From Antedon mediterranea (taxonomy: Eukaryota; Animalia; Echinodermata), in contig NC_092672.1 of assembly GCF_964355755.1 (NCBI RefSeq), forward strand, positions 7,564,001 to 7,628,000: 64,000 nt of DNA, written 5' to 3'. How positions within the stretch are numbered: position 1 is the stretch's first letter; each line of letters begins with the position of its first letter. Below the pieces are notes generated by a model. The model saw nothing but the letters and a program-made list of their open reading frames with translations. It was not told the DNA's origin and did not search any database. Made by a program: the position numbers and the translations under genes. This document shows positions 3,001 through 57,300 of this stretch, one piece after another.

Positions 3001-6000
3001 CACATCAATGCAATTCAATCTCTTTATTTATCTCATAAAAAAAACAAATAATACACATAATAAAGAGGAGTAAAATAAATTTAAAGAAGGTAGACCTCCA
3101 GGAAACCCCAAGGAGCTTGTGATAGAAGAAAAAAAAAGTTACAAAAGATAAATATAATAAAAAGCCTGAATCTTCTAATATAAAATACAAAACATGCATC
3201 AATTCCTGCAAATTTTGTTTTTTGCATACAAATTAGGCTGTGGGGTTGCCTGAAAGATATCACAGAATATTTTGGGTTTTTTACATAGCTTCAGCTGTGT
3301 ATCCAGATTTCAAATTTTTTAATTTTAAATAGAAAAGAACCAAAACTTTGAGATTGTTGGAAGTTTTATTATAAGATTTAAGACCTTACTAAACTTAACA
3401 CAAATTCTCCAAAAAAGAAAATTTCCACAAAATTTGTAATCATTAATTACTAATCGATACAGTACACTACTGTCTGATGTATTGGCATGCATATGGTAAA
3501 CACATCAAATACAAGTTCATTGAGAAGCTATAAGTGATTTCCCTTGTGGAAGATAAAACGTATGTTACTTCTAATGAATATATTCTCAGACGTTTTTGCA
3601 TCTTGTTGTCTTTATGTGCACTTGCATTGTGAATATAGTATGCCTACAGACTGGATTGTAATACTATAGGTTTTACACTTTTTTTTGCACAGGTTTTTAT
3701 AAAAAAATCACAAACCCTTGTTCTTACACACATGCAATGATTAAGAGAATAAACAATTTATAGACAGACCTTTTGCTTGCAATTATTATTGAGGTATTTG
3801 ACAAATTTCGAACATTTTGTTCTTTTTTCGGTTATGGTACTTTGTCTTTTGCTTTTTTTTTGGCTTGTTGGATAGTTTAGGATAGGAAATCGTGTGACAT
3901 ATGTGGAGATGTTCCCAATGCAAATAGAAAGTCACCTTTTTTATCTACGACAACCAACAAATTGGAGTGCCTTCCCAATTTCATCAGGGACATCTACACA
4001 ATGTTGCTATTTATTATAGTGTAATTTTAACATGTAATACCGCAGTACATTAGGTCTATGTAAACATGGTATTGGCGTTTCGATGTGTAAATGTTAATGT
4101 ACTGCTTTTATAGGAATATTAATATGTTGCTTAGTGAGAAATATCACAAATGTATGTATGGAATCGGCAATATTTAGCACCTGGTAATCCAGGTACTACA
4201 TTAAACACTGTTAAGTTGGCACCTGTTGGATGGTCATGTGTTAAGATTAACACCTGGTAGATAGTGTTTGCACTAGTTTGCATTTGTGCTGCACATTTGA
4301 ACTTGTCAATATGTGAATGGTGATTCTAAGTCCTAAAATGTGCTATCAGATAAAGTCTTAATTCAATATAACACATTAATAGTTTATTGTATTTTGTTTT
4401 ATATAATTCTAAATTCACATCTATTAACAATAATTTGTTTTAAGTTAATTTATTTTGTTACTAACATTTAGTTTGTTTTCTTAATTTATTTTAAATTCAG
4501 GGTCTGGATCAGGATACGAAGGAAGTGGACTAGGTAGAGTAGCCACACTGTTAATTGTCCAAACACTGTCCTTGTCAAATTTGTCCAATTCCAATACTGT
4601 AGAGCTTGTATTTTTTTAATTCTCTAGTTTTGCCATTTTCGTAATTTTCATCATTTTTTAAGATAGTCAAATTACCATCCATTTTTACATTGATGCCTTT
4701 TCTTAAATTACCAACCAGATTTACAAAACCTTAAACAAGTCCGCAGATCTAAATTTTTACATTCCTACTTTCTGAAACAATTCTCTTCTTAAATAAGGGC
4801 ATATAAAAGATACAGAGCTCTACAGTTCATTGCAGATCAAAATCAAAACATTCTGTTAAATTAAGAAATAATCCATAATTGTTTTGTTTATCGAGCTGTT
4901 TACTATCTGTTCTCTTGTTTATCATCTGTTTTATTGTTTGTCATAAGTTTAAAGTAGAGGTTGTGGATTATTGAATTTGTTGAATTAAATAGATTATTGT
5001 ATTGCATTAAAGTAAAATTGTTTATTTTGTTGGACATTTACTTTTTTTTTAATTCTTGGTGCCTGTCAACAAGTTCTAATAATTAATACTCACTAAAGCT
5101 GGGTTCCCACTACAATGAAATACAATGTTGTATGCACTAATTGAATGACAAATTACTAGTTTTGCATTACATCCTTGTATTGTCTCAATTTGATATTTAT
5201 CATTGACAAAAACAATATGTCCTTTGGTTTGGTAAAACTAATTGAATGTTTGTGTTATTTTATTCAATGTTGCTCAATTTCTGTGATGTGCTTGGTAACT
5301 CTAACTTTTCTCAAAATGTTGTTATTGTTGCTAAAGTACCTATAACACTACGCTATTTCTTGTGTAAATTCACTACATCATTTCAATCATATTTCACATA
5401 CATTTACAAGCTTTCATTTTATTCTATATGTGGATAAAATAAGTTATTAAACCGTCTTTTTTATACCTTTTTTATTATTCAATAATTCATCTTTTTGTGT
5501 TTTCTTGTATGGTGTAATTTAATACTAAAAGGTATATCTAAACATAAAAATTAATCTGTAGGAGTAAAGTTTAAATCATGTTTATACCATTATCAATAAA
5601 CCAGTTTGTTCCAGTATCAGTAAATCAATACAAGTTTAAAACAGATAAAGAAACCAGTTATACCAATATCAGTATCAACACTAGTTTATATCAGTATCAA
5701 TACACCAGTTTATTCTAGTATCATTAACCAGTTTATTCTAGTATTAGTAAACCAGTTTATTCCAGTATCAGTAAACCAATACCAGTTTATGCCAGTATCA
5801 ATAAACCAGTTTATGCCAGTATCAATAAACCAGTTTATGCCAGTATCAATAAACCAGTTTATGCCAGTATCAATAAACCAGTTTATGCCAGTATCAATAA
5901 ACCAGTTTACGCCAGTATCATTCAATCAAAAGTCATCAAAATAAGTACAGTATATTTACACTTTAATAATGTCTTATTTTGAATCAAGGTTCTGGGTCTG

Positions 6001-9000: not shown

Positions 9001-12000
9001 ATCAAGAGAAAAATGCAAAAGTAATAACATTTTGTAATTCTCCATTCTTTATGTCAAATGATTTAATAAACAATGCTTCAACTCACCAATAATTGATTAT
9101 TGATTGTATTTATTCAGAACCTCCTCCATGCCCATCGACAAACTGCCAAGTACTGTGTCCACGCGGATTTGAACAAGATGAGAATGGATGCCAAACATGC
9201 AAATGCATTGGTAGGTTGTTTTATAATAATGTTTGCTCCAAAAGTTCTTATTAACATTTTGAACTATTAAAAATAAGTTTTTACCCAGCAACTAATAAAA
9301 TATATATTTTGACAAGTTTTCACTCTGAATTTATTCTTTTTACCATAGCAGAACCAACAACAAGCCCCGATATTGTCACTGAAACACCAGAGGTAAGCTC
9401 TGAATCACCAGAGGTAAGCTCTGAATCACCAGATGTAGTCACCACAAAGTCGGAAATTGTCACCATGGCACCAGAAAATATCACCATGGTGCCAGAAGAT
9501 GTCACTATGGCCCATGAGGATATGTCAACAACACCAATGCAAACACAGCCAGGAAAACTTCTTACTGCTGATATGTCTACATTGGAGCCTGATGAAATGG
9601 CAACAACAATCATTGAAGGAGTTACTTACAGAACTGAATTGGTAACAGAGTATCCAAAGGAAGTCACTGGCGAACCAAAGATGGAAACTGATGGCCAACC
9701 ATCAAAGACTGATCAGTTTTTCACATCAAACATGATTGTAATGGAAACAAGTACTTTATATGAAACAGTAACCATTGATATTGATAAGACAGAGAAAATG
9801 GTTTCTGGTAAGACACTGAAAGCCACTGAAGAATCAAAACTAGAGGTCACTCCAGAACCTCTGATCCAGACAACACTTCTAGCTACTGAAGTTGTTACTG
9901 AACGTGTAGACATGGGACCCATACCAACCTCTTCAGAAAAACTTCAACAGCAGACTACTGGATTTGGTATGGAACCCACTAAAATGTCCACAGAGATAGT
10001 AGAAAAAGATGTTACTGAGACAGTAGAAAAAGATGTCACTGAGGCAGTAGGAAAAGATGTCACTGAGACTTTAGAAAAAGATGTCACTGAGACTTTAGAA
10101 AAAGATGTCACTGAAACATTAGAAAGAGATGTAACTGAAAAGACAGAAATAGTTACAGAGAAAGTTATTGCTACTGAAATGTCCAATGTCAGAGTCACAA
10201 AGAATATTCCAGTTACTACTATGCCATCTGATGATGAAGATCTCTCTACAGAAATGGGTTCAGGGACAGGTAAAGTTACAGTTTCTATACAATAAAAGAG
10301 GTAGTTTCTGGATGATTAGATTTGGAGTTTTCTAGTTGGTGGTTTTCCTAAGCAGGTAGCCTCAACTGTCTTTGAGGGCACTTCTGTTTGTTAAAATGTG
10401 TAAAAATAGTGTACATTATAGCTTCTTCTTACGGACACCCTGTTCAGCTGATACCCACATTTAGCTCCTTTTTGATGTTACATCATTGGTTTTTTGCATT
10501 AGGTGAAGATCTTGAGCAAGGTGGTACCACACCAGTACTCATGACAAATATTGTTGGAACCACAGTAATGCCATTGTACACTGGATCAGGATGTGAGATG
10601 ACTAAGTTTGGTTGCTGTGAGGATGGTATTACACCATCTGATGGTCCTGATGGAATGGACTGTCCGCTGGTTGGTAAGTAAAAATCTTATTCATTTAAAA
10701 AAAGTTCTTTAAATAGATTTTTTCCATATAGTTAATATCCATATGTTCAGAAAAATATGTGCAATTGTAAGTGAAGTGAAATTTATTATTTTCAACTGTT
10801 AAAATGTTAAGCTCTGTCAACACTATCAAACCAATTTGAAAAAAAGTGTGACGTGCCAAAATAATAATGGTATAAAAATAAAACCAGTATATCATCGTAT
10901 ATACATTTGATTGTCACACAAAGTTTGATAGTGTAGACAGGGCTTAAGTAACTGTTAACTCAATTCACTGTACTGATTCATTTTAGTGACAACACCTGAA
11001 CCACCACCGCCAGCATGTGACTCTGTGATGTGTCAACATGGAGGTTCCTGTATCAACCGAATGGAAGAGCCTGGATTTATCTGCTTGTGTCCTCTTGGTA
11101 GAAATGGTCCTGTATGTGAAGAAGGTAAGGAATTTGTAGGTTTAATAAGTTATCACTGACCATAGAATGAAAATGTCATATAGGTTTTTTTCTGTCAATA
11201 AATGTGAAATAAAAAAAGTAATATAAAAAGAAACAAAATAATTGAATGTTTTTCGACATTATATTCAATTCAGCATTTAAGGGGCAGGGTAGTTTTTACA
11301 AAGCTTTTTTCTTTTAAGGAAAAGTGTTCAGAAATATTTTGTTACAATTTTAATTTTTAGAAACTGAATACACCACTCCTTCATTCTCTGGTCATTCATA
11401 CATTGCCTTTGAGAAGAGACGACGAACGGCAAGCTCAACAGAAATTGAAGTTGAATTCTATCCAGAATCTGATACAGGCATCCTCTTCTACTCATCTTCG
11501 TCTGATGGAGATGAGTTTATTTCAATAGAAATTGTTGACGGTTTTGTAGAGTTCAGGTTTGTTTAACATATTTTTTAATTTTTTGCTTGTGCTTTTTTAT
11601 TTATACTATTTCATTTCTATAGTAATATTTTTTTTCATAAATAAAAAATGTCACTGCTTTTCTGTGTACAGTCAGACCTTCAATACTAGATCAAATACAG
11701 TAATTATGTAAAAAAGTGTAACGTTTTTCAAGCATGACATTAACATATCAGGTGTTACATCCTCAGGTGGCAAGGTAAAGATGATGGTATCGCTAGGACA
11801 ACAATCGCCATGCCAACCACAGACAACAATAACGAGTGCGTCTTCATTAGTTTTTACCATGGTTTTATGTTCAGAAATTCTTCCATGGTTACGCCTCTTA
11901 AGCAATTCATTTATGCTAACAATACATGTTTGACTTTATTTGCCAGTATTCATATCCAGCAATCTTCTAACTCTACCATATTATACTGCCTTTATTATTA

Positions 12001-15000: not shown

Positions 15001-18000
15001 TGTGGAGATATATTTGTGGATCCCTGTGAAGGTAACTTGTGTCGATCTGGTTCAACGTGTGTGACTCTACCTGAGGGTGGATATCGATGTGATTGTCCAA
15101 TTGGCTTGCAAGGAGAGAAATGTGAAGAAGGTAAATAATGCACATCTCCCATTTATTGTGGTGTCTGTAATCTCTGTGGTTACCATGAGCTCGGTGACAC
15201 AACACCATGAAGGACGCCATAGCATAAGCAGAACCAATGCAACTAGCTAGCATTGGACGGCTCCATATGAGTACTCAGCCAGTGGCCTTTGTATTCTGTG
15301 TTACGCCACTGCATGGGCTGTGCGTGCTAGTACTGTAGATGGCCTAACGCTCTGTCTACACTATCAAAACTAGACAAAAAAAGTGTAAATGTGCCCAATT
15401 ATGGTAGTGATATGCCCAAATAGTTTATAGTGATATGACATCATCATGTCCATATATGGGCACATTACGGGTTAAATTATTGATTGCATTATTACATTTA
15501 ATACACTATTATATTACATTTTTTTGTGTTAAAAGAAGTTGTAGAGGAAGTGTACATCCCAGCCTTCTCTGGTATATCCTACATTGAGAGACCAGGACTT
15601 AAGAATCTTGCAGACCAGACAAGTATGAATATCTCATTCTTAACAAAGGCAAAAGATGGTATGATTCTGTACAATGGACAAAAAGGATCCAATAGAAATG
15701 GAGATTTCATTTCTCTTAATATGGTTAATGGATTCTTGGAATTCAGATACGATCTTGGTGGAGGAGAAGCAAACATTAAGTAATTAACGATTTTAAATTT
15801 AAATTGGATATAATTAAACAATAACAAAACAATATTAGCATATTCAACTTTTTTAGCAGATCTAACAAGTTTAATTAACACATTATTTTTATAACTTTTA
15901 AATAGTGTCTGTACTGTACTTGTTTATTGTTTTAAACATTGTTCATTTATTTAAAACTGATTTGATATAAAAGACCAATAAAGGATGAATTTAATTGAAT
16001 TTTCTGTGATGAAGTTTACCTTTTTATAGGTGTATATTGATAACAATAAATTTTAAAAACTAACTTCCACCAAAACAAATAATCAACTTTAAACTTCTTG
16101 CAGGAGTGAAACACCTTTATCTATGAATGAATTTCATGATGTTTATGTGACACGAAATCGCAGAAATGGAATGATGGTGATTGATAATGGTACACCAGTA
16201 TCTGGAAAATCTAAGGTAAAAAAATGTCATAGAATTGAATTGTCAACAAATGATGATATCATGTTACTATTATATGCCGAACGAGATTTGGACTTATTTA
16301 CGCACACCGTGTATGCGGAACCTGTGTGCAAACAATTTTGTTACTAAAACTCAATTTTTTAATTTTATATATCTCATGTGTTTATATTGTTTTACTTTTA
16401 AATGTTTGAAGCTCACTAGTATGGAGAGCCGTTTCGATAGTGCGTACCTGAAAATGGAATAAAATTAAATAAAAATAAGGTACTAACTTTCTAACAAAGC
16501 AACTTTTCTTTTCATGATAAAGGGAACTCAGTCCCAGTTGAATCTAGGTGGAAATCTATTTATTGGTGGAAGTAGAGATTTCCAGTTTGCTACACGAGCA
16601 AGAATAACAACTGGTCTTACTGGTGCCATAGATAAAGTGAGTGCTTTTACATTTGAAAATAGATTATTAATCTATAAAAATGTACATTTATTTTAAATAA
16701 ATATGTTACACTGTAACAAATACAAATATATTTCATTCAAAAAATTGAAAATAAAGATTTGATAATATTTCAAAATATATGCTAATTTTGATACATTCAT
16801 AGTTCATGGTCAGAGGAGAGATGGTTGATGATTTGCTAGAGGGCGCCATTAATATTGTTGAAGTTACAAACTACCAAGATGATGTTTGTAAGAATTCTCC
16901 ATGCATGGATGGTTACATGTGCATGAAAAACGTAACTACGTACGCCTGTGTTTGTCCCCCCGGTAAATTTGACACCGAAAATGGTTGTGCTTCTGAAATA
17001 GGTAAGCTTAGAGTTGACAGCTTGAACTTTACTTTACCTTTATCAATCCAGTGAAGATTGATTGATCAATCTATGTAAATATGATTTCCTATATGAACAA
17101 ATACAATTTGAAATAATGACTGGCCTCAATTTGTTTTATATATCAAACTTAAATGGGCAATCTGATATACTAGTGTTGTACAGTATGTAAAAGTTTATAA
17201 CTGATTTTTAATTTCAGATCCAGGCATGGTATCAGATGTTCAAACAACGCAGAAACCAACCATAACACCATCAAATAATATCATAGGTCTTGATGGAAAT
17301 ACCACCCTAGCATACCCATCTGGGGGTAAAATAAGGTAAGAAAATTATCTTGAGTGCTGTACCTTTGAATAGGAGCAACACGTCTTTTAAGGCCTGAACA
17401 ATAAGCGGTTTTGCAATGAACAAAACAGATTGTGTTTACGAGTGAATTCTTGTAATGTAATGTAGGGCAGAGGTGAGAAGACAGTTACAAATGATGCTTT
17501 ATTAAAATAGCAAACTGAAATAAAATGCAGACAAAATGATGCTTTATTCAAATAGGCAACTGAAATAATAATAATTCTGATATATCTTAACATAAGTAAA
17601 ATTACAGTATGTTTTGCTAACCCAGTTGCAGAACTTTTGTGTATAATTAATATAAATTTAAATAATTTTACTTCTAGTATATCTTTTACTAATATGATAC
17701 TAGCTTTGAATAGAAAGTATTATTTGAATAATAATATAATTGGTTTGTAATTGTCTAATGGATTTGAAAATGTCTTTTTTACCATCCAATCTTGAAAGAA
17801 ACTGATGGTGCCTTAACAGTTCTTTGCAAGTTTTCTTTCAATTTTAATTTGTTAAAAAGACATTTGAAAATTATTTTGTTACTACAAAACAGATGAACAG
17901 TTTTGTCTGATTATGTTGTTGTAACCTAATCAGTATAAGTGTTGTGTTAAATTAACTATACTCACATAATACTAAATTGTAGTAGATAAGATTCCTGATT

Positions 18001-21000
18001 TTATTTTAGTTACAGACGCACTAAAAACATGTATGATAATAGTGTAGTGAAATATTCAGCAACTTATTGGAGTACTATACGGTAAAAACAACAACAAACA
18101 AATAAAATACAACCGACTTCTTTGCTACATCTTCATCAAATATCATGTGTGGATTTTCCAAATTTAGCTTTACCTATTTCCAGGGAGTTGTAAAATACTT
18201 TACAACTCCATGCTTTTTCTTTCAACATATCAATTTTCTCTAGTTAATGTAAAAAAAACACCAAATCATGTTCTTTTTAAAAGCAATGTTTTCATACAGC
18301 ATATAGGCAATCCATACATAATTTATCACACATAATAAATCGAATTACATTAAGAATTGTATTTTAGGAATGAAATATACATAATTAGTGTTTGAAAATT
18401 TAATTTTAAACCGATATAAGGATCGATGTATGTATTCATCTTTACCAAAACCCTTGCACAAACTTGAAAACATTCCAATTGTTAGAATGTGTATGTATAC
18501 ATTTCAAAAAGGAAAATTGGCTTTTAAACATTGTTTACGAATATCTTTCTAAATGTATGACTGTTGTAGGTAGTAAAAATTGATTATACTAAATTAGATT
18601 ATTATACATTCAGTTTTAGTTTGGAAACTATTTGTTTGACTTTGACAGAAGCACCACAAGGCAAAACATTTTGCTTTGTGAAATCTGCCATTTTGATAAG
18701 ATAAGATAAGATAACTTTTATTGATCCTCAAAAAGGAAATTCATTGCTCGTCATAATAACAAAGAAAACACAATAAAAACAAATATAGCATAAAACCATT
18801 CATATAAAAACATCTAAAAAATTACAAGATAAAATTATCTTCTTGACTTCCTGTTGTACTGGAGGATACCGGAGGGAATAAAGGATTTAGCAAATCGATT
18901 TGTTTTCACACTGAGGAGCCTCAATCTACCACTTGGATTAAGTAGGTCTATGATCACTTTGTGGAGAGGATGAGAGGCATCCGACTAAATAGGGTTGATT
19001 TCTTTTTAAATTTGTTTTGTATAAAATATAATAATATGAAAAACATTAATATGTATTCTTATGCTTGCAATGGAAGGTTACAATGCATGAACTGAGTTTT
19101 GTTTGATATTAAGATTTTAATCACAATATCTTGGGATTGGTAGCCATCTAAGTTACAACTCTTCTATTTATACCATTCACTTATTTAAAATTTCATAACT
19201 ACTGCACTACTTAATGTTTGATGTGACAGTAATATATTTTAGATAATAGTTTAATCAATTTTGTCATTGGTGTGATTTTGCTTGCCATTTTACTTCATCT
19301 TTACACCATGTCATATTTCATTTTCTATTCACAGTGGCGACGAAACGGTTGCATCTCTTCGGTATTAAAACTTACAATTTGTTCAACAGTTATAGTTGCA
19401 TGAACTTTAACCTTTGCATGCCTGCATGTTTTCTCCATTCCATTAACAGTTAAATTAAACTACGTAATAAAACTAACTACTCTATGTGCCAAACTTTTAG
19501 AGAGTTGGACATCTATCCTTTCTTTTAGATTTATTGTGTAGACGATTTCAAATATCTAAATAAATTGTTCATTTTTTAGCAGTGTTGGAAAACTACAATA
19601 TAAGATATCAAATATCTATCAGAGATATATATGATCTTTAAACAATAAATACATATTACAACAACACTTTGTTAAAATTTCTTTGTTCCAATTCAACACT
19701 TCTTTCCAATTCCAATTCCTTCTTTTGGCAGGGTGTTGAAAACGGTGTTTTGTGAATAATCTTTATGCTAAACAAACTTTTTTTCAAAATTGCTTATTTT
19801 CAATTTTCTGCTTCATAGCTAAGGCTTTATTTTTTGCATTTTTATTGATAATTCAATTTACTTTTCACTTGGCATGGCATGGATAAATCACAATTTTATT
19901 ATTGAAATTGTTTTTTTTTTCTATAAAAAATGTATTTTTTATTTTTTCCATCTGGAAACATAATCAGAATGAAATACTATTGGTTTTTTAAACCTTCTTT
20001 TTGAGATTTTAGCATGTTTTTTCCATTTCTTTTCATAATTTCAGGGAATAGTAAAGGTTTTTTTTGTGTGTTTTTAAATTAAATTTTAACATTGTGTTAG
20101 GATGCTTGTTGGAAAACACATAGTTGCATGAGGGACATAAAGCATTTAAAAAATAGTATACAATCAAAGTAAAGTAACTTTCAATCATGCCAATTTCTAA
20201 TTGAATTTATTTTGATAATTCCTTTCATTATGGATAAATACAGTATTTACCAATCATACTTAAGTGAGACATGTTAACTTTTTTTTAAGGTGTCCCCTCA
20301 ATAGAGGTTCAACTGAACTTCAAAAGGGTTGCAAAGTAGATTAGTAGTTAAAAAAATATTCTAAAAAATTATTCAAATAATTAAAGACACCTTCCCTACA
20401 ATTTGTGACGTTTTGTTAAAATAATACATATATTACTTTAAAAACATTAAACCAGGTCATTTCTTGTCTTAAATGTACGTTTTGTGGTAAATTATGATAA
20501 AAAGTGAGAAACAATGCACTACCTAAGTAGCTCGCGTCGATTGACCTCTCGTACACGATCTTTAGGCCTAGCCTAGGTAGGCTTAGTTTTGTAGGCCAAG
20601 CTGGTAAACATCGGTAACGTACGAACATCATACGCTAGCTATATACCTAGCCTGACGTTGTATAGTTGCTGCATTAATTGTCTATTTTTGCGAGACTCCG
20701 TTGATACAAATTGGGGAAAAACCGATATTTTCGCTGAAAAGTTAGGAGTCTTCCATTTGTTTTGGCCTCACGATCGATCGAAAAGTTGGTGAATTACAAA
20801 AGAAAAACAAAAATATCAATCCGCGCGCAATGCATTTTGGGATATATAGCGGGCCGCTATAATTATTAGATTCGAATTATTTTTCACATTTTTAACCATT
20901 TAAAGACGAAAACAGTTATCGCAATAGGACCATATAGTACATTAAATATCGTTTGTGATCTTAAATTAGATCTAAATAATGTAGGGAAGGTGTCTTTAAC

Positions 21001-23048
21001 TATCACTAATTTTATTTTAAAAGAGTAAAAGCAGCCAGATCCAGTCAGATTGAATTGGATGTAAGGACTGTCAACAAGTCTGGTGTCATCTTATGGAATG
21101 GCCAAGATAATGGAAAGAGTGGAGACTTCCTTGCCATAGCTATTATCAATGGACTTCCAGAATTTTCCTACAATCTTGGTTCAGGCACGCTGCGCATCAA
21201 ATCCAACATTCCGATTAACGATGGACAATGGCATAGAATATATGCTATGAGGCAAGTATTGATAATAATAATTGATAATAATATTCGGGCATTCCAACCT
21301 TACCGATTTCTCCAGGAGCCTTGCAAATTTTCAGCCGATTCCCCGAATATTAACAAAATCTCCCGAAATATTGGTTTTGGATGAAAACATTTATTATTAT
21401 TTATTCTCATTCAGTGAAAAAACCTCTAATTTGTAAGGTGCAGACATAATGTGTGGCTGAGTAGATGATGGGGAGCTAAATTGTGATATCCTATTTGCTG
21501 ATTTTCAGTGCAATGTTGGAATGTTCTGTTAAAATATTTGAACAAAATTGGTAGAGTTAGTTTCATTTCCCAAGATCTTTTAGTGAAAGTGTACATATAA
21601 TTGGTCAGATGTTTTGGCCTACTCTGACGTAATTTGTACTTCATACGAAGTAGGTTCTAAGTGGGTTCGAGTTCCATCCTAGAATTACTTGCGAATTGTT
21701 TCGTAAGTATTCTCAAATGTACTTAGTATGAAGTACAAATTACGTCAGAGTAGGGCAAAACATCTGACCAATTACTCAACTCCCTGACGCAAAGCTACTT
21801 CACAGTAGTTTAATACAATTACAACCCTAATTAATAATTGTTTATTTTTATATGTAGAAATCTGAGGGAAGGTAGTCTGCAAGTAGATGAGGATGAACCC
21901 ATTCTTGATACGTCAAAAGCAGCCTCAACTCAACTTGATACAAATGGACTATTAATATTAGGTATGTAAACAGCTTGTGTGATGTGCCCAAATATGGTAG
22001 TGATATGCCCAAATATGGTAGTGGTATGACATCATCATGTCCATTATTATATGGGCACGTCACGTCATGTTTTTGTCACATAAAGTTTGATAGTATAGAC
22101 AGATCTTAAGAGGTTACACATTCATTAGAATAAAGTTAGTTCATACTTTGTGCTTAATCCTGAACTATAATATATGTTGTAAAGTCTAAAATGCATCTCT
22201 CTCTTTTTTAACATCTTTTATACAATTTCAATTTTTTATTTCAATTATTAACAACAACCCAATTAGCAGCAACTTATAAATTACATGGTGTTTACAGAAA
22301 ATATAAAACATTTACAGAAATACACATACCATACTCAAGGAAAGACATTTACAAAGAATTATTAAATTAAAAAATTATTGCATCCACAAAATCAGTTTCT
22401 AATTTATAGTACAATTATTTAAAACTATCTATGTATTTTAGCAATATGAAACTAATAAAGGCATAGTACTAAATTTTAAAATGGTTTATAACAATTATTG
22501 GAATATTTCACTGTTGAGACAGCGAGTGAGGATAAGGTATTGCATTATTCCTATATCTATATGTTACCTCCATCAAAATGGCTAGAGGTTTTGTGGTCAA
22601 TTGCATGTGTCTGTATGTGTGTTTGTTTCTTTTTATATTTGTTAGCAGGATTACTCAAAAAGTTATTGCTCGATTTTCATAAGATTTTAAAGGATGATTT
22701 CATTCCTGTATGGGAACACGTCATTAGATTGTCATATGCTATAGGCAGAGGTTTGCGCTCTCTGAGTGCCCTTCTAGTTTGTAATTGATGGGTTGATATA
22801 AATAACTTTTTGTTTATAGTACTAATTAATGTGTATATAAATGAATAACACTATTTTTAAAAGCCATGTTAACATTTTTACTATCTTCCAAAACAGGTGG
22901 TGTTGATTCTTTATCAGCAAATGCACCGTCAGAATACAGGAACATGTTTGTAGGTTGTGTCAAGAATGTTCAAATAGTTGGAAACAATTTAAAATTAGTA
23001 GATGATGCTATCGGCCAGAAACCAACTCAATTCTGCAGTGAGAACTAA
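1..23048 (+). CDS. AGRN: Agrin (multi-exon, 5' end lies upstream of the window)
   Basis: Phase-consistent exons read by hand: <1-33, 494-712, 1575-1781, 2333-2533 (Kazal/follistatin, PVCGSDG..Y..EC), 2884-2916, 4501-4533, 5989-6234 (SG-rich + Kazal), 6479-6631, 7678-7770 (YGCCPDG), 7919-8080 and 8538-8672 (laminin-EGF, [14 protein letters not shown]), 8790-9020 (Kazal), 9118-9210, 9349-10269 (S/T-rich), 10503-10673, 10987-11124 (EGF), 11361-11556, 13929-14144, 14631-14848 (LG1+EGF), 14993-15130 (EGF), 15536-15779, 16104-16215, 16523-16636, 16803-17001 (LG2+EGF), 17218-17335, 21024-21251, 21858-21961, 22897-23048 (LG3, TAA). The order FS-LE-FS-S/T-EGF/LG x3 is diagnostic of agrin. Confidence 0.95.
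1899..2065. mobile_element. Short degenerate MITE (AAGCTTGGTTC...CCAAGCTT); related copy at ~39069-39175
   Basis: Imperfect terminal inverted repeats in TAA context; shares internal GTCGCTTGTGATTGGT with the 39.1-kb copy. Confidence 0.55.
2884..2916 (+). CDS. AGRN: Agrin 33-nt microexon encoding acidic Ser-Gly peptide ([11 protein letters not shown])
   Basis: acacag|AC...TCTG|gtattt; phase 1-1, frame-preserving; acidic+SG GAG attachment consensus; not in the ORF track. Confidence 0.85.
4501..4533 (+). CDS. AGRN: Agrin 33-nt microexon encoding [11 protein letters not shown]
   Basis: Branch point ACTAAC + T-rich tract, ttcag|GG...CTAG|gtagag; phase 1-1; Ser-Gly repeats. Confidence 0.85.
   Translation, partial: GLDQDTKEVD
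5590..5920. repeat. 24-bp minisatellite (CCAGTTTATGCCAGTATCAATAAA)n in agrin intron
   Basis: About 5 near-perfect copies at 5780-5920 plus degenerate copies upstream; gives the spurious [11 protein letters not shown]. Confidence 0.9.
6479..6631 (+). CDS. AGRN: Agrin exon encoding a lustrin/WR1-like cysteine module
   Basis: gcag|AA..CCAG|gtgaga; [51 protein letters not shown]. Confidence 0.8.
9118..9210 (+). CDS. AGRN: Agrin exon encoding an antistasin-like module
   Basis: ttcag|AA..ATTG|gtaggt; [30 protein letters not shown] fits C-x4-C-x3-C-x2-GF-x2-D-x-NGC-x2-C-x-C. Confidence 0.85.
9349..10269 (+). CDS. AGRN: Agrin Ser/Thr/Glu-rich mucin-like exon with 24-bp coding repeats (EKDVTETL) and a C-terminal [15 protein letters not shown] site
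   Basis: Long open frame, TAGCAG acceptor, ACAG|gtaaag donor; tandem 8-aa repeats at ~9990-10140. Confidence 0.9.
10810..10944. mobile_element. Short MITE family (TIR AGCTCTGTCTACACTATCAAAC); other copies ~15349-15466, ~21975-22108, ~40232-40406
   Basis: Inverted ends GCTCTGTCAACACTATCAAAC / GTTTGATAGTGTAGACAGGGC in TAA/TTA context; the other three copies share internal GTGATATGACATCATCAT. Confidence 0.75.
18695..19005 (-). mobile_element. 3' fragment of a Rex1/Babar-like non-LTR retrotransposon
   Basis: Minus strand reads DASHPLH...[29 protein letters not shown], followed by AATAAA and a (TTATC)n tail. Confidence 0.7.
19335..19361 (+). CDS. AGRN: Candidate 27-nt alternative microexon at the agrin z/B site (SGDETVASL)
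   Basis: Pyrimidine tract + cacag|TGGCGACGAAACGGTTGCATCTCTTCG|gtatta; phase 2-2 matches flanking exons; GC-rich island in AT-rich intron; 3 TGCATG just downstream. Confidence 0.7.
19397..19477 (+). promoter_or_regulatory. Intronic splicing-enhancer cluster: 3x TGCATG (Rbfox motif) plus ACTAAC
   Basis: TGCATG at 19397, 19415, 19423; ACTAAC at 19472; YCAY-rich tract at ~19264-19332 upstream of the microexon. Confidence 0.6.
20381..20999. mobile_element. Non-autonomous TTAA-specific DNA transposon (Kolobok-like)
   Basis: Perfect 20-bp inverted ends TTAAAGACACCTTCCCTACA / TGTAGGGAAGGTGTCTTTAA (TTAA TSD, AG...CT termini); no ORF. Confidence 0.85.
21598..21775. mobile_element. Hairpin/MITE-like element with ~55-bp inverted arms
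   Basis: TAATTGGTCAGATGTTTTGGCCTACTCTGACGTAATTTGTACTTCATAC ... GTATGAAGTACAAATTACGTCAGAGTAGGGCAAAACATCTGACCAATTA. Confidence 0.75.
22564..22780 (+). mobile_element. Degenerate Helentron-associated (DINE-1/HINE-like) element
   Basis: TTACCTCC 5' end, (GT/GTYT) microsatellite, 3' GAGGTTTGCGCTCTCTGAGTGCCCTTCTAGTT stem-loop end. Confidence 0.5.
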
Positions 23049-25714: not shown

Positions 25715-28030
25715 TAGTGTTTACCGACCAACCGAAAAAAAAGAAATGTTCGAAAAATGGACAAATTTCGATATTTTTTTATTTTGTTATCTAACTGGTC
25801 ACAATGGATCTTTAGAAGATGATAACAAAATAAAAGGTCGATATTTTGTGATTTTTTTTTCTCGATACAGGGAAATGAATTGAAATTTTCCTGTACTATA
25901 GTACATGGATTTTTTCGAAAAATGGCCAGAACATCCACTTTTTAAATTTCAATAATTATGCGATACTATTGCCATATATGAGCTATCATCATCTTATAGA
26001 GCCAAAGTAATTAGTTATGTCAACAAATAAATGGGTCGAAAAATTCCCATTTTTCGAAAATGTCCCTGTACAGGGATTTTTTCGAAAAATAGCCAAAACA
26101 TCCACTTTTTAAATTTCAATAATTATGCGATACTATTGCCATATATGGTGTTATCATCATCTTATAGAGCCATAGTAACTAGTTATGTAAAAAAACGGAT
26201 TTTTTCAAAAAATGGCCGATTTTCGACCTTTTTATTTTTCGATAAAACTGGTTACAATAGCACAATTGACATGCGCAGAACCCATTATTTCGACTCTGCG
26301 CATGTTGATTATGCTATAGTAAGCATTTATGTCAAAACTGGTTAATATAGCCCAACTGACATGCGCAGAACGCATTATTCGACTGCGCATGTTTCTTATG
26401 CTATAGTAAACATTTATGTCAAAAGTGGTTACTATAGCACGATTGACATGTACAGAACCCATTATTCGACTCTGCGCATGTTTATTATGCTATAGTAACC
26501 ATTTATATCACAAAATAAAATGGTCGAAAATCGGCCATTTTTCGAAAATTTCCCTGTAGGCCTACTATAGTACAGGGATTTTTTCAAAAAATAGCCGATT
26601 TTCGACCTTTTTATTTTTCGATAAAACTGGTTACTATAGCACAATTGACATGCGCAGAACCCATTATTCGACTCAGCGCGTGTTTATTATGCTATAGTAA
26701 CCATTTATGTCAAAAGTGGTTACTATAGCACGATTGACATGCGCAGAACCCATTATTCGACTCTGCGCATGTTTATTATGCTATAGTAACCATTTATATC
26801 ACAAAATAAAATGGTCGAAAATCAGCCATTTTTCGAAAATTTCTCTGTACTATAGTACAGGGATTTTTTCAAAAAATGGCCGATTATCGACCTTTTTATT
26901 TTTCGGTAAAACTGGTTACTATAGCACAATTGACATGCGCAGAACCCATTATTCGACTCTGCGCATGTTTATTATGCTATAGTAACCATTTATGTCAAAA
27001 GTGGTTACTATAGCCCAATTGACATGCGCAGAACCCGTTATTCCACTCTGAGCATGTTTATTATGCTATAGTAACCATTTATATCAAAAAATAAAAGGGT
27101 CGAAAATCGACCATTTTTCGAAAATTTCCCTGTACTGTAGTACAGGGATTTTTTTCAAAAAATGGCCGATTGTCGACCTTTTTATTTTTCGATAAAACTG
27201 GTTACTATAGCACAATTGACATGCGCAGAACGCATTTTTCGACTCTGTGCATGTTTATTATGCTATAGTAATCATTTATGTCAAAAGGGGTTTACTATAG
27301 CCCAATTGACATGCTTAGAATCCATTATTCGACTCTGCGCATGTGTATTATGCTATAGTAACCATTTATATAAAAAAATAAAAGGGTCGAAAATCGGGCA
27401 TTTTTCGAAAATTTCCCTGTACTATAGTACAGGGATTTTTTCAAAAAATGGCCGATTTTTTACCTTTTTATTTTTCTATAAAACTGGTTACTATAGCACA
27501 ACTATGCTATAGTAACCATTTATATCAAAAAATAAAAGGGTCGAAAATCGGCAATTTTTCGAAAATTTCCCTGTAGGCCTACTATATATAGTACATGGAT
27601 TTTTTTTCGAAAAATTGTTTAAATATCCACTTTTTAAATTTCAATAATTATGCGATACTATTCGCTATATATGAGCATATATGGTGCTATCATCATCTTA
27701 TAGAGCCATAGTAATTAGTTATGTCAAAAAATAAAAGGGTCGACAATTGCCCATTTTTTTCGAAATTTTACCTGTACTATAGTATAGGGATTTTTTTTCG
27801 AAAAATGGCCAAAACATCCACTTTTTAAATTTCAATAATTATGCGATACTATTGCCATATATGAGCATATATGGTGTTATCATCATCTTATAGTGCCATA
27901 GTAATTAGTTATGTCAAAACATAAAAGGGTCGAAAATTGCCCAGTTTTCGAAATGTTCCTTATACTATGATTGATAAATGTTTTTAAAATGTATTTAATA
28001 AATGCAACAAAATAAAAGGTCGACATTTTT
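25715..28030. repeat. Complex satellite of palindromic subunits with ~286-bp higher-order period
   Basis: TACAGGGATTTTTTC recurs at 26571, 26856, 27141, 27428; subunits GTTACTATAGC..CATGCGCAGA..TCTGCGCATG..GCTATAGTAAC and TTTTCGAAAATTTCCCTGTACTATAGTACAGGGATTTTTTC are self-complementary. Confidence 0.92.
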
Positions 28031-28354
28031 TTAATGCCCAAAGTTCAACTTTTCAACATTCTATTTTTTATTTTATGCGATAGTAGAATGCTTATAGTGG
28101 TATTGTAACCAGTTATGTCAGAACATAAAAGGGTATATTATTATAATACTCACAATTATGTGTTATTGCTTATTATAGAGTCATATTAACCATTTATATC
28201 AACAAATAAAAAGGTCTAAATATTAGTATTAGTAGGCCTAAATTAGTAATGAATATAATTTGAATAAAATACTACCGGTATATTAAAACATTTTATAAAT
28301 ACATAAATAAGTTTACAATTTATTATACAAACATGTCTATTAAACATTTACCAG

Positions 28355-51300: not shown

Positions 51301-54300
51301 TATAATATCAGCAGAGAAACCTTTACGTTGTCCACTACTGTCGGTACGAAACAAAACAAGCAATGTGTTACTTGTCGACAATATATCTGGTGGCAAGTCA
51401 CTACCGCAGTAATTGGCAATAATATGTTCGTAGTCAACTAACACATAATCATGACAGTCGGGTTCGAGATGAAAATCAGAGAATTTGAGCAATAGTAAAT
51501 GTCCAGAATTTGTACGAAACTTCCAATTGTAGCTCAGATTATCAACATAGTTGCTGGGATAATTTGGTGATGTAATATTCATCGACTGCTTTGGAATTAG
51601 AAAGTATTCGCCAGACCATTCCGTTTGACCTTTAAAGGAAAAACCATTCATTTATGTTTTATAATCCTAAACAACAGAGACAATCAATACTTTTTTTAAT
51701 TACACCATAGTGTTTTTGAATTGTTTTCTGGTCTAATCTTTATCATAATTTTATATTATTACTATAGTTAGTCTTTCTTTCTTAGGAACATTGGCCAGAA
51801 CATTTATTATATATTAACTTAGCACGATTAAAATATATGCTTTCTTTTTTACTTGACATTAATAAAATAAATTTTAGTTGGTTTAATTTTCTCGGTTTAC
51901 TGTTTTGGTAAGTCCAGCAGCGAAAACTTGGTTTCATAAAACGTGGTTTGCCAAGACAGTGTTATCAATTATCATCAGTAAGGTACTGTATATGTACAAT
52001 GATGAGTATTACTTTCTTTGGTCTTTTGTGGATTTTAATATTTTGCAGTAGTCATGTCACAATATATATGTAATACATAGTGATGACATAAATGGTGGTG
52101 ACATAATCAACAATTGTATATACCCGAAAACATTAACAAAGATATTACTTCAAATATTACACTATCACAAGAATCATCAATGTAACTTTTGTCAAGTAAA
52201 AAATAATACAGGATTATCACACAATTTGAATATGTACATTAAGCAGTTGGTTCATCTACAAGTTACACAGTCACAAATTATTTATTTTTGATAAAATTTA
52301 AAATAATGTCAGGTAAAAGTTAGGATAATCTTTCAAAACATAAAATAATTTACAGATAACAGATCAATAAAAAGATCAATTTAAAAAGTTCCAACAGAAT
52401 AACAAAAGTTGAACTGATTTATTTCGAATCTATAAAACATAAGACAATAACAATAATATAATAATAATATTAAGACAATAGATCCAGGACGACCCAATCA
52501 ATCCTAAACACAGAAGAATTAGTTTCCATCGAGATCATAAAAAGTGTGAAAATAAGAAAATAAAAACGATAAAAGTAATTTAAGTTGATAACAAGGAATA
52601 GAAATAATTTCAATAGATCACATCCCATAGTAACTCACTCCTGTGAGTATACCTTCAACCCACATCGTATTTCGGAGGGACCGTTCTAACAGAGGTGGTG
52701 GTATTCTCACTGCAGTACATACCTCTCTTGCACCAATTCGTCTAAATGACCTTGAACCTAACGATCTTGAGCTGATATGGGTGATGTGCAGTGGTCACAA
52801 ATGTAAGTGGCTAATTGGCACCATATACCGTCCTCCGTCATCCACAGCTGCATACTGGGAGAAACTCCAAGTTGCATTAACCAACATCGAGCACAAGATT
52901 CACGACGTCACAGGTATCATCCCTTGGAGATCTTAACATCGACTGGTTGGTGAACACATCTGGCAAACGTCATTTAGTTGATATAACGGAAACATATGGA
53001 CTTGTTCAATTAGTCCCAACGTTCACTCGACCTTCATTGGATGATCCAACAGAAGGAACTTTTATTGATCACTTCTACATGAATCCGTCTGACAGTCTTT
53101 CGTTAATACAAACCGCAGACAATCCACTTGAATCTAACCACTTTGCTGTTGAATACAAATTTCAAATGCGAAAAGCTCAACCTGAACCAGCACTTATAAG
53201 GCAGTTTTTGTCTTATGCGAATGCTGACACTAATCATCTTAACCAGTTATTGCACCTTGCCCCGTGGTGTATGGTGATTGACCATCAAGACATCAACTCA
53301 TCTTGGGAAGGCTGTCTGGACCTACTAGAGGCCGCGGTTAGAGACAGTTTCCCAGTGGTGATACGCAAGAAATCCAAGAACAAACCATGGATTACGATCG
53401 ACATCTTACGGCTAGCCAACAAGAAACGAGCTCTGTTTATAAAGTTTGTGAAGACTCAATCAATGGACATTTGGACTAAATATAAACAAATTAGAAATGA
53501 TTTATAATACAAGACCAAAAGAGCGTATTATAATTATGTAAATAAATTGTTTTCATCTCCTGATAACAAACGTAGATTCTGGGGACATGTCAGAATGAAA
53601 CGGAAGTCTTCCTGTGCTAGTGTTTTCATGCTTGATGGAGCACAAATTGAAAAGCCGGAAGATATCGCTCAAGGCTTTCAAAATGTCTTTTCGTCCGTTT
53701 TTAATTATTCTGAGAATATTCCAGATACTCCTTTACCTTGTTTATATCCACTACCAACCTTATCTAATGTTTATTTTTCTGTTTCACAAATCACTAGCAT
53801 GTTGCAGAAGCTTAAAACAAACAAGGCTGCAGGCCCAGACAACTTGTCCCCCAAGCTTCTCCAGCTCTGTGCCCCGACATTTTCCCCAGTTCTTTACGAG
53901 TTGTTTAAAATTTCAATTTCATCAGGTTGTGTGCCAGAAGGTTGGAAGAGGGCACATGTCACCCCTATCTTTAAGAAAGGAGTGACTGCCGATTTTAACA
54001 ACTACCGCCCGGTGGCTTTAACATCTGTTGTGGGTAAATTGCTAGAGAGGCTTGTGGTGCAAGCACTTCTAAAACATGCTACTGACAATTGCTTGTTTAT
54101 CGAAAACCAACATGGGTTTTTACCTAATAAATCATGTGCCACGCAACTTGCAACTATTATCCATGACTGGTCCTCTGTTTTAGATAAAAGATCTCCACCC
54201 CATATTGATGCCATTTTTTAGATATCTCGAAGGCCTTTGACCGGATGCCTCATGACATTCTCCTCAATAAGCTTTCCCAGCAATTTAACATTACTGGTGA

Positions 54301-57300
54301 TATATGGTACTGGTTAAAGTCTTTTTTAATTAAAAGATACCAAAAGGTTCAATTTAAAGGGTCTTCATCTAACTGGGTGGAGGTAACCAGTGGGGTACCT
54401 CAAGGCAGTGTACTCGGTCCCATTCTTTTTAACTTTTTTATTAACGATATTATTTGTTCACTTAAATGTAAAACTGCTATTTTTGCTGATGATACTCTTA
54501 TTTATAATGCAATTAACTCTCCTCAGGATTCTCTAAACCTTCAAGTTGATCTGGATCGACTTGGTCTGTGGAGCCAAGCAAATCGCATGCCTTTCAATGT
54601 TATGAAGACGAATGTCCTGCATGTCACACGTTCGCGTAACAGACAGTTGTCTAAATACCTTTTGTTTGGCTCTCATATTAGTCCGGTGACATCTTTTAAA
54701 TACCTTGGTGTTACTTTTAACTCAAAATTGACCTGGGATGACCATGTCCATGTCATTGTTTCCAAAGCTAAACGTATTTTGGGCTTTGTTTGGAGTGTGG
54801 CTGGACATGCTTCGACCAGTGCATTTTTGTCTTTGTACAAAAGTCTTGTTTTGCCTGGTCTGGAGTATGCGCAACCTGCTTGGTTTCCATGGACGAAGTC
54901 TTTGTCAGATCAGCTTGAGGGGGTCCATAGGAGAGCAACTCGTCTTGCTCTCAAACAGCATCGTGGACAGATGTGCTTTGAGGAGAGGTTAAATTTGCTT
55001 TCAGTTTCATCTTTGTCTGTTAGAAGAGATACATTTCTTATTATATTTTGTTTTAAGCTTCTGGTGGGGTTTCTGGACTGTAACTCGCTGTAACTGTATT
55101 TTGTCTTTACGTCTTTTATGTGTTAACTGACTTTGGGGTTGGGTCAACCGGCTCAGCTACAGTGATTAAGTTCACTTAGGTTGACCCTGGTCTCCCCAAT
55201 TTCAGGTTTTTTGTTTTGTATATAATTAAATAGACCAAATAAATAATGAAATGGAATGAAATGAAAAAAGCGGTGACGATGAAATATTACTACTATTTCA
55301 CGAAATACAGTAGGCCTACAGACTGCATTATCATGTCTTTCAGAGAAATTTAACAATCTTAATTATTCTTCTCTGTTAATATTCTACAGATTGGAGTATT
55401 TTATGAATTTAATGATGACAATATTACACATTATTGTAAGTGCTATGGTTTGTATATTACCATTTCTTAGTAAACTAACTAACTATAAATTACTTATTAA
55501 TTTGTGAAAATTCCACCATTTTCAGTTTAAGTCGAGAATTTAATGCTATGGTCCTGATGTTGAAGAGCAGTGTTTTCTACTTCTGGTGATGTTGTTATGA
55601 TAACTGCAATTACACGTAATTTGCTATCATATTATAAATTGTAATTGTATTAAATGTCAAAATATTTAGAGGTGTATGTCCTCTTCTTCGCCGAAACACT
55701 ATTTATTTTGCATTAGCTTCTAAATTGTCAATGTCAGTCAATAAGTTCAGAATAATGTTCGTAATAGTAGATCATAATTTTTTGCGTAAACAGTAAAATA
55801 TCAAGATATTTACCTTTAGTAACCGTAAGGTCAGTGGTGGTAGTGATATCGGAAGTAGCTGGATTGGTCGTAGTACCGTTAGTAGCAGGATTAATTTTAG
55901 TGGAATCAGTAGTAGCTGGATTAGTATTAGTAGGATCGGTAGTAGGATTAGTAGCCGTATTATCCGTAACAACATGATCGATAGGATCGGATTTTGCAGG
56001 ATTATTATGCGTAGTATTAATAGTAGTAGAGTTAGTGATAGCGGCATCGGAGGTAGCAGTATTAGAAAGCGTATCTGTAGTTGCAGGATTCATAATTGTA
56101 TTATCCGTAATACCAAGATTAGTAGAAATGATATTAGTAGTAGCAAGATTATTAGAAGTAGATGTATCGGTTGTATATATGGTTGTGGTATCCTTTAAAA
56201 TTGGAGGCATCGGTTGATTAGAATAATCTATAATATTAATATAATAATAATAATTCGCTTTTCTAAAATGTAACTACAATTAATATTTTACTATATAAAG
56301 CAATATACTAATTTCAACCCAGTTTCATCAGTCAATAGGGTTCGTCGAAACAGTGATTCTATGATTTATAAAAATCTTGGCTGTTTGGGGTACTGTAGGA
56401 AGAGGGGTGAGTGGGGTTGGCGCAGATAGAGATTAAAATGGTATGGGGAAATACAGTACTCTTAACTATCCCATGTTTTGTATGAAACAGAATAATTCGA
56501 TTAAAATATTAATTAACAAATTTAAATAAAATAAACATATACATACTGTACACTCGTCCCTGATAATTTTTTTTTTTTAATTTGTATGGTGTTATATAAA
56601 CATAAATTCTAACATTTAAATTAACATCCTACCGTTGTACACTTTAATACCAGAAGAGAAACCTCTACGTTGTCCACTGTTATCGGTACTAAACTTAACA
56701 ATCAACGTGTTATTTATAGACAAAGTGTCTGGTGGCAAATCCTGACCGTCGTATCTGACAAGTGTACCTCCATCATCAACTGACACGTAATCATAGAATT
56801 CTTCGACATAAAAATCAAAAAATGTGAGCAACAGCAAATGTCCAGGATATGTACGAAACGTCCAATTGTAGCTCAGATTATCATCATACTTGTTTTGGTG
56901 ATGATAATGTGGTGATGTAATATTCTTCGACTGATTTGGATATAAAAAGTACTCAAAAGACCATTCCGTTTGACCTTTAACAAACGAAAAACATTCATTA
57001 AGTAAAACTATGTTTAAATAATTCGAAACAATATACACTGATATAACAAGGGAAGAGTTAACCCTGGATATAACCCTAGTAATTATTTATCGATTACAAC
57101 GCTGGTGTTTTTGTATTTTTTGTTGTTTTTGCTTGATCTTTTCATAATGTGATATTATTATTATAAAGATATAGAGTCACCGTAGTTCCACTGATACGCT
57201 TGTTTCTTCTTTTTACGTATTTTTTAAAATTTACCCTAACCTTAAAGAAAGTTATGGTAAATCTTCTTCTTTATAGCAATGTGAATGACACATTTATTGA

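Follow-up and report, generated by a model that had tools for sequence, protein, structure and literature searches.

The Z exon of agrin is the textbook microexon that builds a synapse, and the locus studied here raises the question of whether the splice site that harbors it is used as a switch outside the chordates as well. Z exons have been called chordate-specific, none having been found in nematode or sea urchin (PMC12445529, 2025), and invertebrates are stated to lack the B/z site or its motif (PMC1939731, PMC2874008; further background in PMC6966886 and PMC8797185). A first-pass annotation of the window, a stretch of 64,000 nucleotides of Antedon mediterranea DNA, had proposed a regulated microexon at this very position. 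The host is a crinoid echinoderm, that is, a non-chordate deuterostome.

The agrin gene and its z intron

The gene is indeed agrin, and the exon falls at the z/B position within LG3, as judged from RefSeq identity, from the position and phase of the intron, and from the alignment of the inserted peptide onto the chick B11 insert (1PZ7). On the plus strand, 27 exons from 494 to 23048 join into an open frame of 1,690 residues with the domains in the order expected of an agrin orthologue (Kazal/follistatin, laminin-EGF, Ser/Thr-rich, EGF and three LG), and the best protein matches are agrins. The only departures of the product from RefSeq A. mediterranea agrin isoform X1 are two alternative exons and whatever lies upstream of the window; the product is 65% identical to the agrin of another crinoid, Anneissia japonica, over 1,773 aligned columns, and 42% and 38% identical to hemichordate and sea urchin agrins, respectively, both over shorter spans. 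The phase-2 intron after the first LG3 strand is the one that carries the chordate Z/B exons (PMC12445529, S2 and S3 Figs), and the sea urchin z intron too has the exon layout seen in Antedon (PMC12445529). The features around the site are as follows.

17218..17335, plus strand: constitutive exon for the linker and first strand of agrin LG3, ending in phase 2; spanned by the spliced contig of sequencing run X1
17336..21023, plus strand: z-homologous phase-2 intron of 3,688 nt, GT..AG; amphioxus, sea urchin and C. elegans have it in the same place and phase
19250..19334, plus strand: long acceptor region, free of AG and rich in pyrimidines, holding a YCAY cluster (six in the last 60 nt)
19335..19361, plus strand: 27-nt alternative microexon adding 9 residues in the z loop; RefSeq isoforms with and without it
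19397..19428, plus strand: three TGCATG (Rbfox motif), a predicted inclusion enhancer
19472..19477, plus strand: ACTAAC, polymorphic and probably dispensable; lost in the run-X1 haplotype
21024..21251, plus strand: constitutive LG3 core exon with a GC donor
21858..21961, plus strand: LG3 exon
22897..23048, plus strand: final coding exon, finishing with the agrin stop codon

Several other features of the gene may be recorded here. No SEA domain appears in the domain listings of either crinoid agrin; an antistasin-like module (PF02822, listed for protein P0172) is encoded at 9118-9210, ahead of the Ser/Thr-rich region; a tandem acceptor at 9349-9351 gains or drops one Ala (RefSeq X2); and a GC-AG intron follows the LG3 core exon (donor at 21252). 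The y/A-position intron of LG2 lies at 16216-16522 in phase 0, with an insert in none of the eight RefSeq isoforms. Elsewhere in the window, inspection by eye showed minus-strand exons at about 31700-59700 that resemble tandem adhesion-GPCR genes (CUB-like, Thr/Ser-rich repeats, duplicated transmembrane exons) and, on the plus strand at 52634-55090, an interrupted LINE-like frame for an endonuclease and a reverse transcriptase. Short repeats of high copy number and a block of tandem repeats, recognized by very high contig depth, occupy about 10910-10950, 15345-15465, 18700-18990, 20420-20800, 21977-22076 and 25900-28300.

The 27-nt exon and its splicing signals

The proposed phase-2, frame-preserving exon was found to be correct in coordinates, borders and peptide: 19335-19361 is flanked by AG and GT, is in frame and stop-free, and inserts SGDETVASL between an upstream exon whose last base, 17335, stops two bases into a codon and the next LG3 exon, which begins at 21024. 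The exon is already present in the automated RefSeq annotation, where seven of the eight predicted Antedon isoforms (X1, X2 and X4-X8) carry the peptide and X3 lacks it, a count of automated models and not a measure of abundance. Variants of this kind are assembled in the NCBI pipeline from alignments of spliced RNA. Since 'GDETV' occurs in only seven of the 314 stored proteins, all of them Antedon isoforms, and no other stored protein carries the peptide, the exon call cannot stem from homology.

Skipping is seen in sequencing run X1, a contig-only record of unknown tissue which we take to be RNA because one of its contigs runs from exon to exon. This contig, of 2,578 nt and identified across two alignments via its length and depth, lies on exons at a depth of 81.6, versus 3-7 for the listed intronic contigs. 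Its positions 1-889 correspond to 23784-22895 and its positions 1220-1339 to 17335-17216, so that by the record coordinates, with the two exons in between counted, 17335 is joined directly to 21024; the sum of the exons without the microexon is likewise 2,578. The joints and loose ends listed for run X1 show none that takes in the microexon; minor forms are lost from contigs, however, and absence is not implied. Nor does the lack of cover by run X3 over much of 19003-19983 imply anything. With isoforms on both sides and a contig that skips, 19335-19361 is very probably a real alternative microexon, its inclusion being known here from automated RefSeq models. The same run bears on another alternative exon of the gene, a 69-nt one inside LG1 (11767-11835) that is skipped in RefSeq X7 and conserved in Anneissia: the main contig stops exactly at 13929, the acceptor that follows it, as expected of a branch. 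A shorter insert in the sea urchin protein P0182 may occupy the same LG1 position.

The splice signals were scored with a matrix built from the gene's own 27 acceptors and 26 donors, the real sites being scored leave-one-out; the matrix is crude, giving the real LG1 alternative exon a donor score of -3.8. Of the 410 AG..GT candidates that keep the frame in the gene's 26 introns, the microexon has the third-best splice score, and no other is followed by two or more TGCATG within the next 100 nt. The acceptor had been called good, and its score of 10.1 is near the top of the range of the annotated acceptors (-3.6 to 10.5), but the donor is weak, at 2.4 below every one of the 26 real donors (3.8-11.9). 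The acceptor region is the most pyrimidine-rich in the gene (a share of 0.75, versus 0.48-0.69 in the 27 annotated acceptors), and its AG-free zone of 83 nt is the third longest beside those acceptors, which reach 94 and 103. The exon itself has a G+C content of 56%, a level reached by about 1% of intronic 27-mers. Within-species variation around it amounts to at most one difference in 199 nt, versus 3.3 expected (P 0.04-0.15, in an interval chosen post hoc), a sign of weak constraint. Two of the eMIC/Srrm234 traits, a long AG-exclusion zone and a weak donor, are present, whereas the third, UGC near a very weak 3′ splice site, is lacking, no TGC being found at -25 to -3 of an acceptor that is strong. 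A second small-exon candidate in the z intron, 18016-18030, has the best splice score in the gene and would give N-x-V across the junction; it was rejected for now, being used in none of the eight isoforms, having neither an Rbfox nor a YCAY cluster, and having a short AG-free zone.

The three TGCATG that had been reported 36-67 nt downstream are present, beginning 36, 54 and 62 nt past the donor and finishing at +67. Such a triplet exceeds chance expectation: when the window's 22 plus-strand TGCATG were placed at random 200,000 times, any triple so tight arose in only 122 (about 6 in 10,000), and in Markov resamples of an equally long intron three TGCATG fell within 100 nt in 0, 1 and 1 of 3,000 for orders 1-3. 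One mark of RBFOX-enhanced micro-exons, an excess of TGCATG over chance close downstream in the intron, is present, and Rbfox-type control is plausible, as had been suggested. In human, alternative micro-exons are marked by TGCATG downstream, and RBFOX bound there promotes inclusion (PMC4317164). With the RBFOX-enhanced, PTBP1-repressed micro-exons of that study the Antedon exon shares a length below 51 nt, TGCATG just downstream, an extended pyrimidine-rich tract upstream and a weak donor; the basis differs, the micro-exons of that study having been established from conservation and CLIP in human brain (PMC4317164), the pattern in Antedon from sequence motifs. The combination of triplet, pyrimidine-rich acceptor and weak donor would fit an Rbfox-enhanced microexon. 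RBFOX micro-exons are found in heart and muscle too (PMC4317164); the pattern leaves nerve and muscle undistinguished.

Two further motif claims stood in part. A YCAY-rich upstream tract does exist, with copies at -50, -40, -29, -24, -17 and -6 from the acceptor, and six in 60 nt is the maximum among the gene's introns (0.17% of intervals of that size). Enhancement by Nova, however, is weakened as a reading: downstream YCAY is at or below background (2 in 200 nt and 7 in 600 nt, versus 1.5 per 100 nt), whereas the YCAY clusters through which Nova has been described to work in Ciona follow the Z exons. YCAY upstream of an exon means silencing in the Nova map of vertebrates. The nearby ACTAAC, which would favor a Quaking-type muscle program, is present at +111 from the donor, but a 4-nt deletion in run X1, one sequenced haplotype, abolishes it.

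The z loop in Antedon and in other animals

Structure prediction of LG3 with the insert, which the first-pass annotation had recommended, was carried out with AlphaFold2 (37 sequences) and returned the agrin LG3 fold, with a mean pLDDT of 93 and agrin LG3 structures as all ten of the best fold matches. In the model the insert is an unstructured stretch and the least confident block (68), and it is predicted to lie in a surface loop. The human LG3 Ca2+ ligands D1940, L1957, Q2007 and D2009 align to identical residues in Antedon, and the Ca2+ site of LG3 has been described as close to the z loop.

What the loop would do when lengthened is another matter. Binding to LRP4 is described as depending on N-x-I/V in vertebrate z8, and on N-x-F in Ciona Z6 (PMC12445529), and a constitutive N-x-I/V is said to be present in all agrins aligned in the latter study. 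The insert had been noted to lack the vertebrate Asn motif, and this holds more widely: N-x-I/V/F is absent from the loop of both Antedon forms and of Anneissia, and the constitutive N-x-I/V ahead of the insert is missing in both crinoids. Because of this lack of motif, a chordate-type LRP4 switch in Antedon is unlikely and a different job is likely. Insert-free vertebrate agrin binds alpha-dystroglycan strongly (PMC1939731).

The insert had also been said to create an acidic Ser-Gly (ISGDE). Its Ser-Gly is followed by Asp-Glu in the predicted loop, but it is preceded by Lys-Ile, with no acidic residue before it. The consensus for glycosaminoglycan attachment is an exposed Ser-Gly with acidic neighbors. 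Attachment to the new Ser-Gly is conceivable, since the gene already toggles two 33-nt Ser-Gly exons, but is rated low owing to the poor upstream context. Those two exons (2884-2916 and 4501-4533) encode acidic Ser-Gly repeats, are skipped singly or together in RefSeq X4-X6, and are likely to be optional glycosaminoglycan attachment sites.

To place the insert among those of other animals, the z loop was read in roughly 80 agrin-like proteins picked by hand from the 314 stored, fragments without LG3 being dropped and several proteins on which the search pattern failed being read by eye; inserts were located by their position in protein models. In insert-free bilaterian models two fixed strands lie 28 residues apart, such forms having been read from crinoid, sea urchin, sea star, hemichordate, amphioxus, mollusc, spider, mayfly, copepod and decapod. 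Against this spacing Antedon has 9 additional residues, Anneissia 31, amphioxus 8, the brachiopod Lingula 12 and the spider Oedothorax 13, while nine insect models have 30 to 60, Oratosquilla 43, Lepeophtheirus 50 and five decapod models 131 to 179. Pairs with and without the insert occur in the crab Eriocheir (X2 versus X4) and the copepod Lepeophtheirus (X1/X2 versus an older X3). The five long decapod inserts are alike, with 30-39% Asp/Glu and an acidic Gly-Ser-Gly in all five; long acidic pancrustacean z inserts were noted in P0003, P0225, P0228, P0248, P0289, P0166, P0223, P0226 and P0234. No insert was found in the readable mollusc models, and none of more than one residue in two sea urchin, two hemichordate and three sea star models, where one of 6, one of 3 and one of 4 cluster members were readable for the sea stars and Glandiceps was likewise read by its cluster representative.

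Conservation of the peptide in the other crinoid, which the proposal had looked to, did not hold: the Anneissia insert, taken from a single model, is 31 residues long and basic, and has no significant match in the three frames of the Antedon z intron (best score 26, shuffles 22-41). Both crinoid inserts do contain Ser-Gly next to Asp. We also noticed by eye, at about nt 77-94 of the sea urchin z intron in S3 Fig B of PMC12445529, an 18-nt frame-keeping AG..GT candidate, not called by the authors, that would encode N-x-I. It is absent from both S. purpuratus models read, and may be a matter of chance, 26 of 309 such candidates in the introns of the Antedon gene encoding N-x-I/V/F. In the literature searched, most subscription journals being outside its scope, we found no description of a crinoid or arthropod insert at the z site.

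Regulation and origin of the crinoid microexon

The reading that we favor overall, by a modest balance of the evidence, is that of a z-intron cassette switched by Rbfox in nerve or muscle, which would retune the binding of LG3 to matrix or glycans rather than activate LRP4. Given the weak donor, skipping would be the default state, and Rbfox acting on the TGCATG triplet would overcome the donor to give inclusion; regulation of the microexon by Rbfox in a tissue-dependent manner is probable on the strength of these motifs. The upstream YCAY and pyrimidine tract may possibly repress inclusion elsewhere, a part of the reading that we hold more tentatively. With its 9 residues the insert would extend the loop close to the Ca2+ site and bring in two acidic residues and a new Ser-Gly, and the longer, more acidic loop could then alter LG3 binding to glycan or matrix partners.

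That the exon is functionless, a product of low-level splicing noise or an artefact of gene modelling, seems very improbable. One could point to the only spliced contig, which skips it, to its weak donor, to the absence of the peptide in Anneissia and to inclusion evidence that comes entirely from predicted models. However, an unaided reader and an independent annotation chose the same 27 nt, no homologous protein could have guided the model, several independent signals converge, and the higher-scoring 18016-18030 in the same intron appears in none of the isoforms. It is also rather improbable that the exon is real but follows a different logic, with Nova or PTB acting on the upstream YCAY/pyrimidine tract as a silencer, or with use in muscle or ligament instead of nerve. 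This would agree with an upstream YCAY density unequaled in the gene and with the silencing effect of that arrangement in vertebrates, as well as with the repression of human Z exons by PTBP1 (PMC10139058) and the occurrence of RBFOX micro-exons in heart and muscle (PMC4317164). The TGCATG triplet is nevertheless the feature least likely to arise by chance, the two mechanisms can coexist, and the ACTAAC that would speak for a Quaking-type muscle program is polymorphic.

The relation to the chordate Z/B exons is the more difficult point, since the proposed match to the vertebrate exons stands for position but not for descent. Like them, the Antedon exon is a frame-keeping microexon with include and skip isoforms that feeds the same surface loop, and its 9 residues compare with 8 in amphioxus, 5 and 6 in Ciona, and 8 and 11 in vertebrates. 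In contrast to them, it lacks N-x-I/V/F, has its YCAY cluster upstream where that of Ciona is downstream, has a TGCATG triplet downstream and sits in a non-chordate host. By eye SGDETVASL has no likeness to z8, z11, Z6, Z5 or the amphioxus insert, 9 residues being too few to exclude drift. Because two defining features, N-x-I/V/F and downstream YCAY, are missing, the Antedon microexon resembles a Z exon at the RNA level yet stands outside the Z-exon family. Descent from an ancestral deuterostome or bilaterian z-site cassette, whose sequence then drifted while crinoids lost or never had N-x-I and other ambulacrarians lost it or have it unannotated, is one way to account for the shared site, and we regard it as unlikely. 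It would explain the common intron, phase and size and the Ser-Gly next to Asp in both crinoids, and it gains something from the Ciona Z exons having been overlooked by earlier analyses and from the 18-nt sea urchin candidate (PMC12445529). Against it are the lack of sequence likeness to any Z exon, the seven sea star, sea urchin and hemichordate models with at most one additional residue, a regulatory layout unlike that of Ciona, and the fact that the sea urchin candidate may be fortuitous.

We lean slightly, instead, towards an origin separate from that of the chordate Z exons, the intron being an old one in which several lineages have acquired alternative exons. Since unrelated inserts occupy the same position in Anneissia, a brachiopod, a spider and many pancrustaceans, the z intron looks like a bilaterian splicing hot spot to which chordates added the LRP4 motif. 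The pancrustacean inserts share with that of Antedon the protein position and the presence or absence among isoforms of one species (Eriocheir, Lepeophtheirus), but at 30-179 residues they are not microexons, and there is no sequence likeness. The best analogy may be the Fgfr IgIII hot spot (PMC5703972), where an old intron in a ligand-binding domain likewise received unrelated alternative exons across phyla, and one of these exons was taken up into a well-known switch of chordates; that case was shown with RNA data and regulator knockouts, whereas the non-chordate agrin events are known from protein models. A more far-reaching possibility, which we put forward with some doubt, is that regulated z-site splicing is older than the chordates, going back to early deuterostomes or bilaterians, where it added glycan-bearing or charged LG3 loops, and that chordates later wired it to LRP4 via N-x-I and Nova. 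In its boldest form this would have sea urchins, too, hiding an N-x-I microexon at the z site.

Our results suggest that splicing is switched at the z site in animals well beyond the chordates. They qualify the 2025 claim of Z exons as a chordate innovation (PMC12445529), and do not overturn the chordate status of the N-x-I/Nova/LRP4 circuit. Together with the include/skip cassettes of arthropods, the alternative microexon of a crinoid separates two events, the loop being made switchable and the LRP4-binding motif being gained, and thereby makes the order in which the neuromuscular agrin switch was assembled testable.
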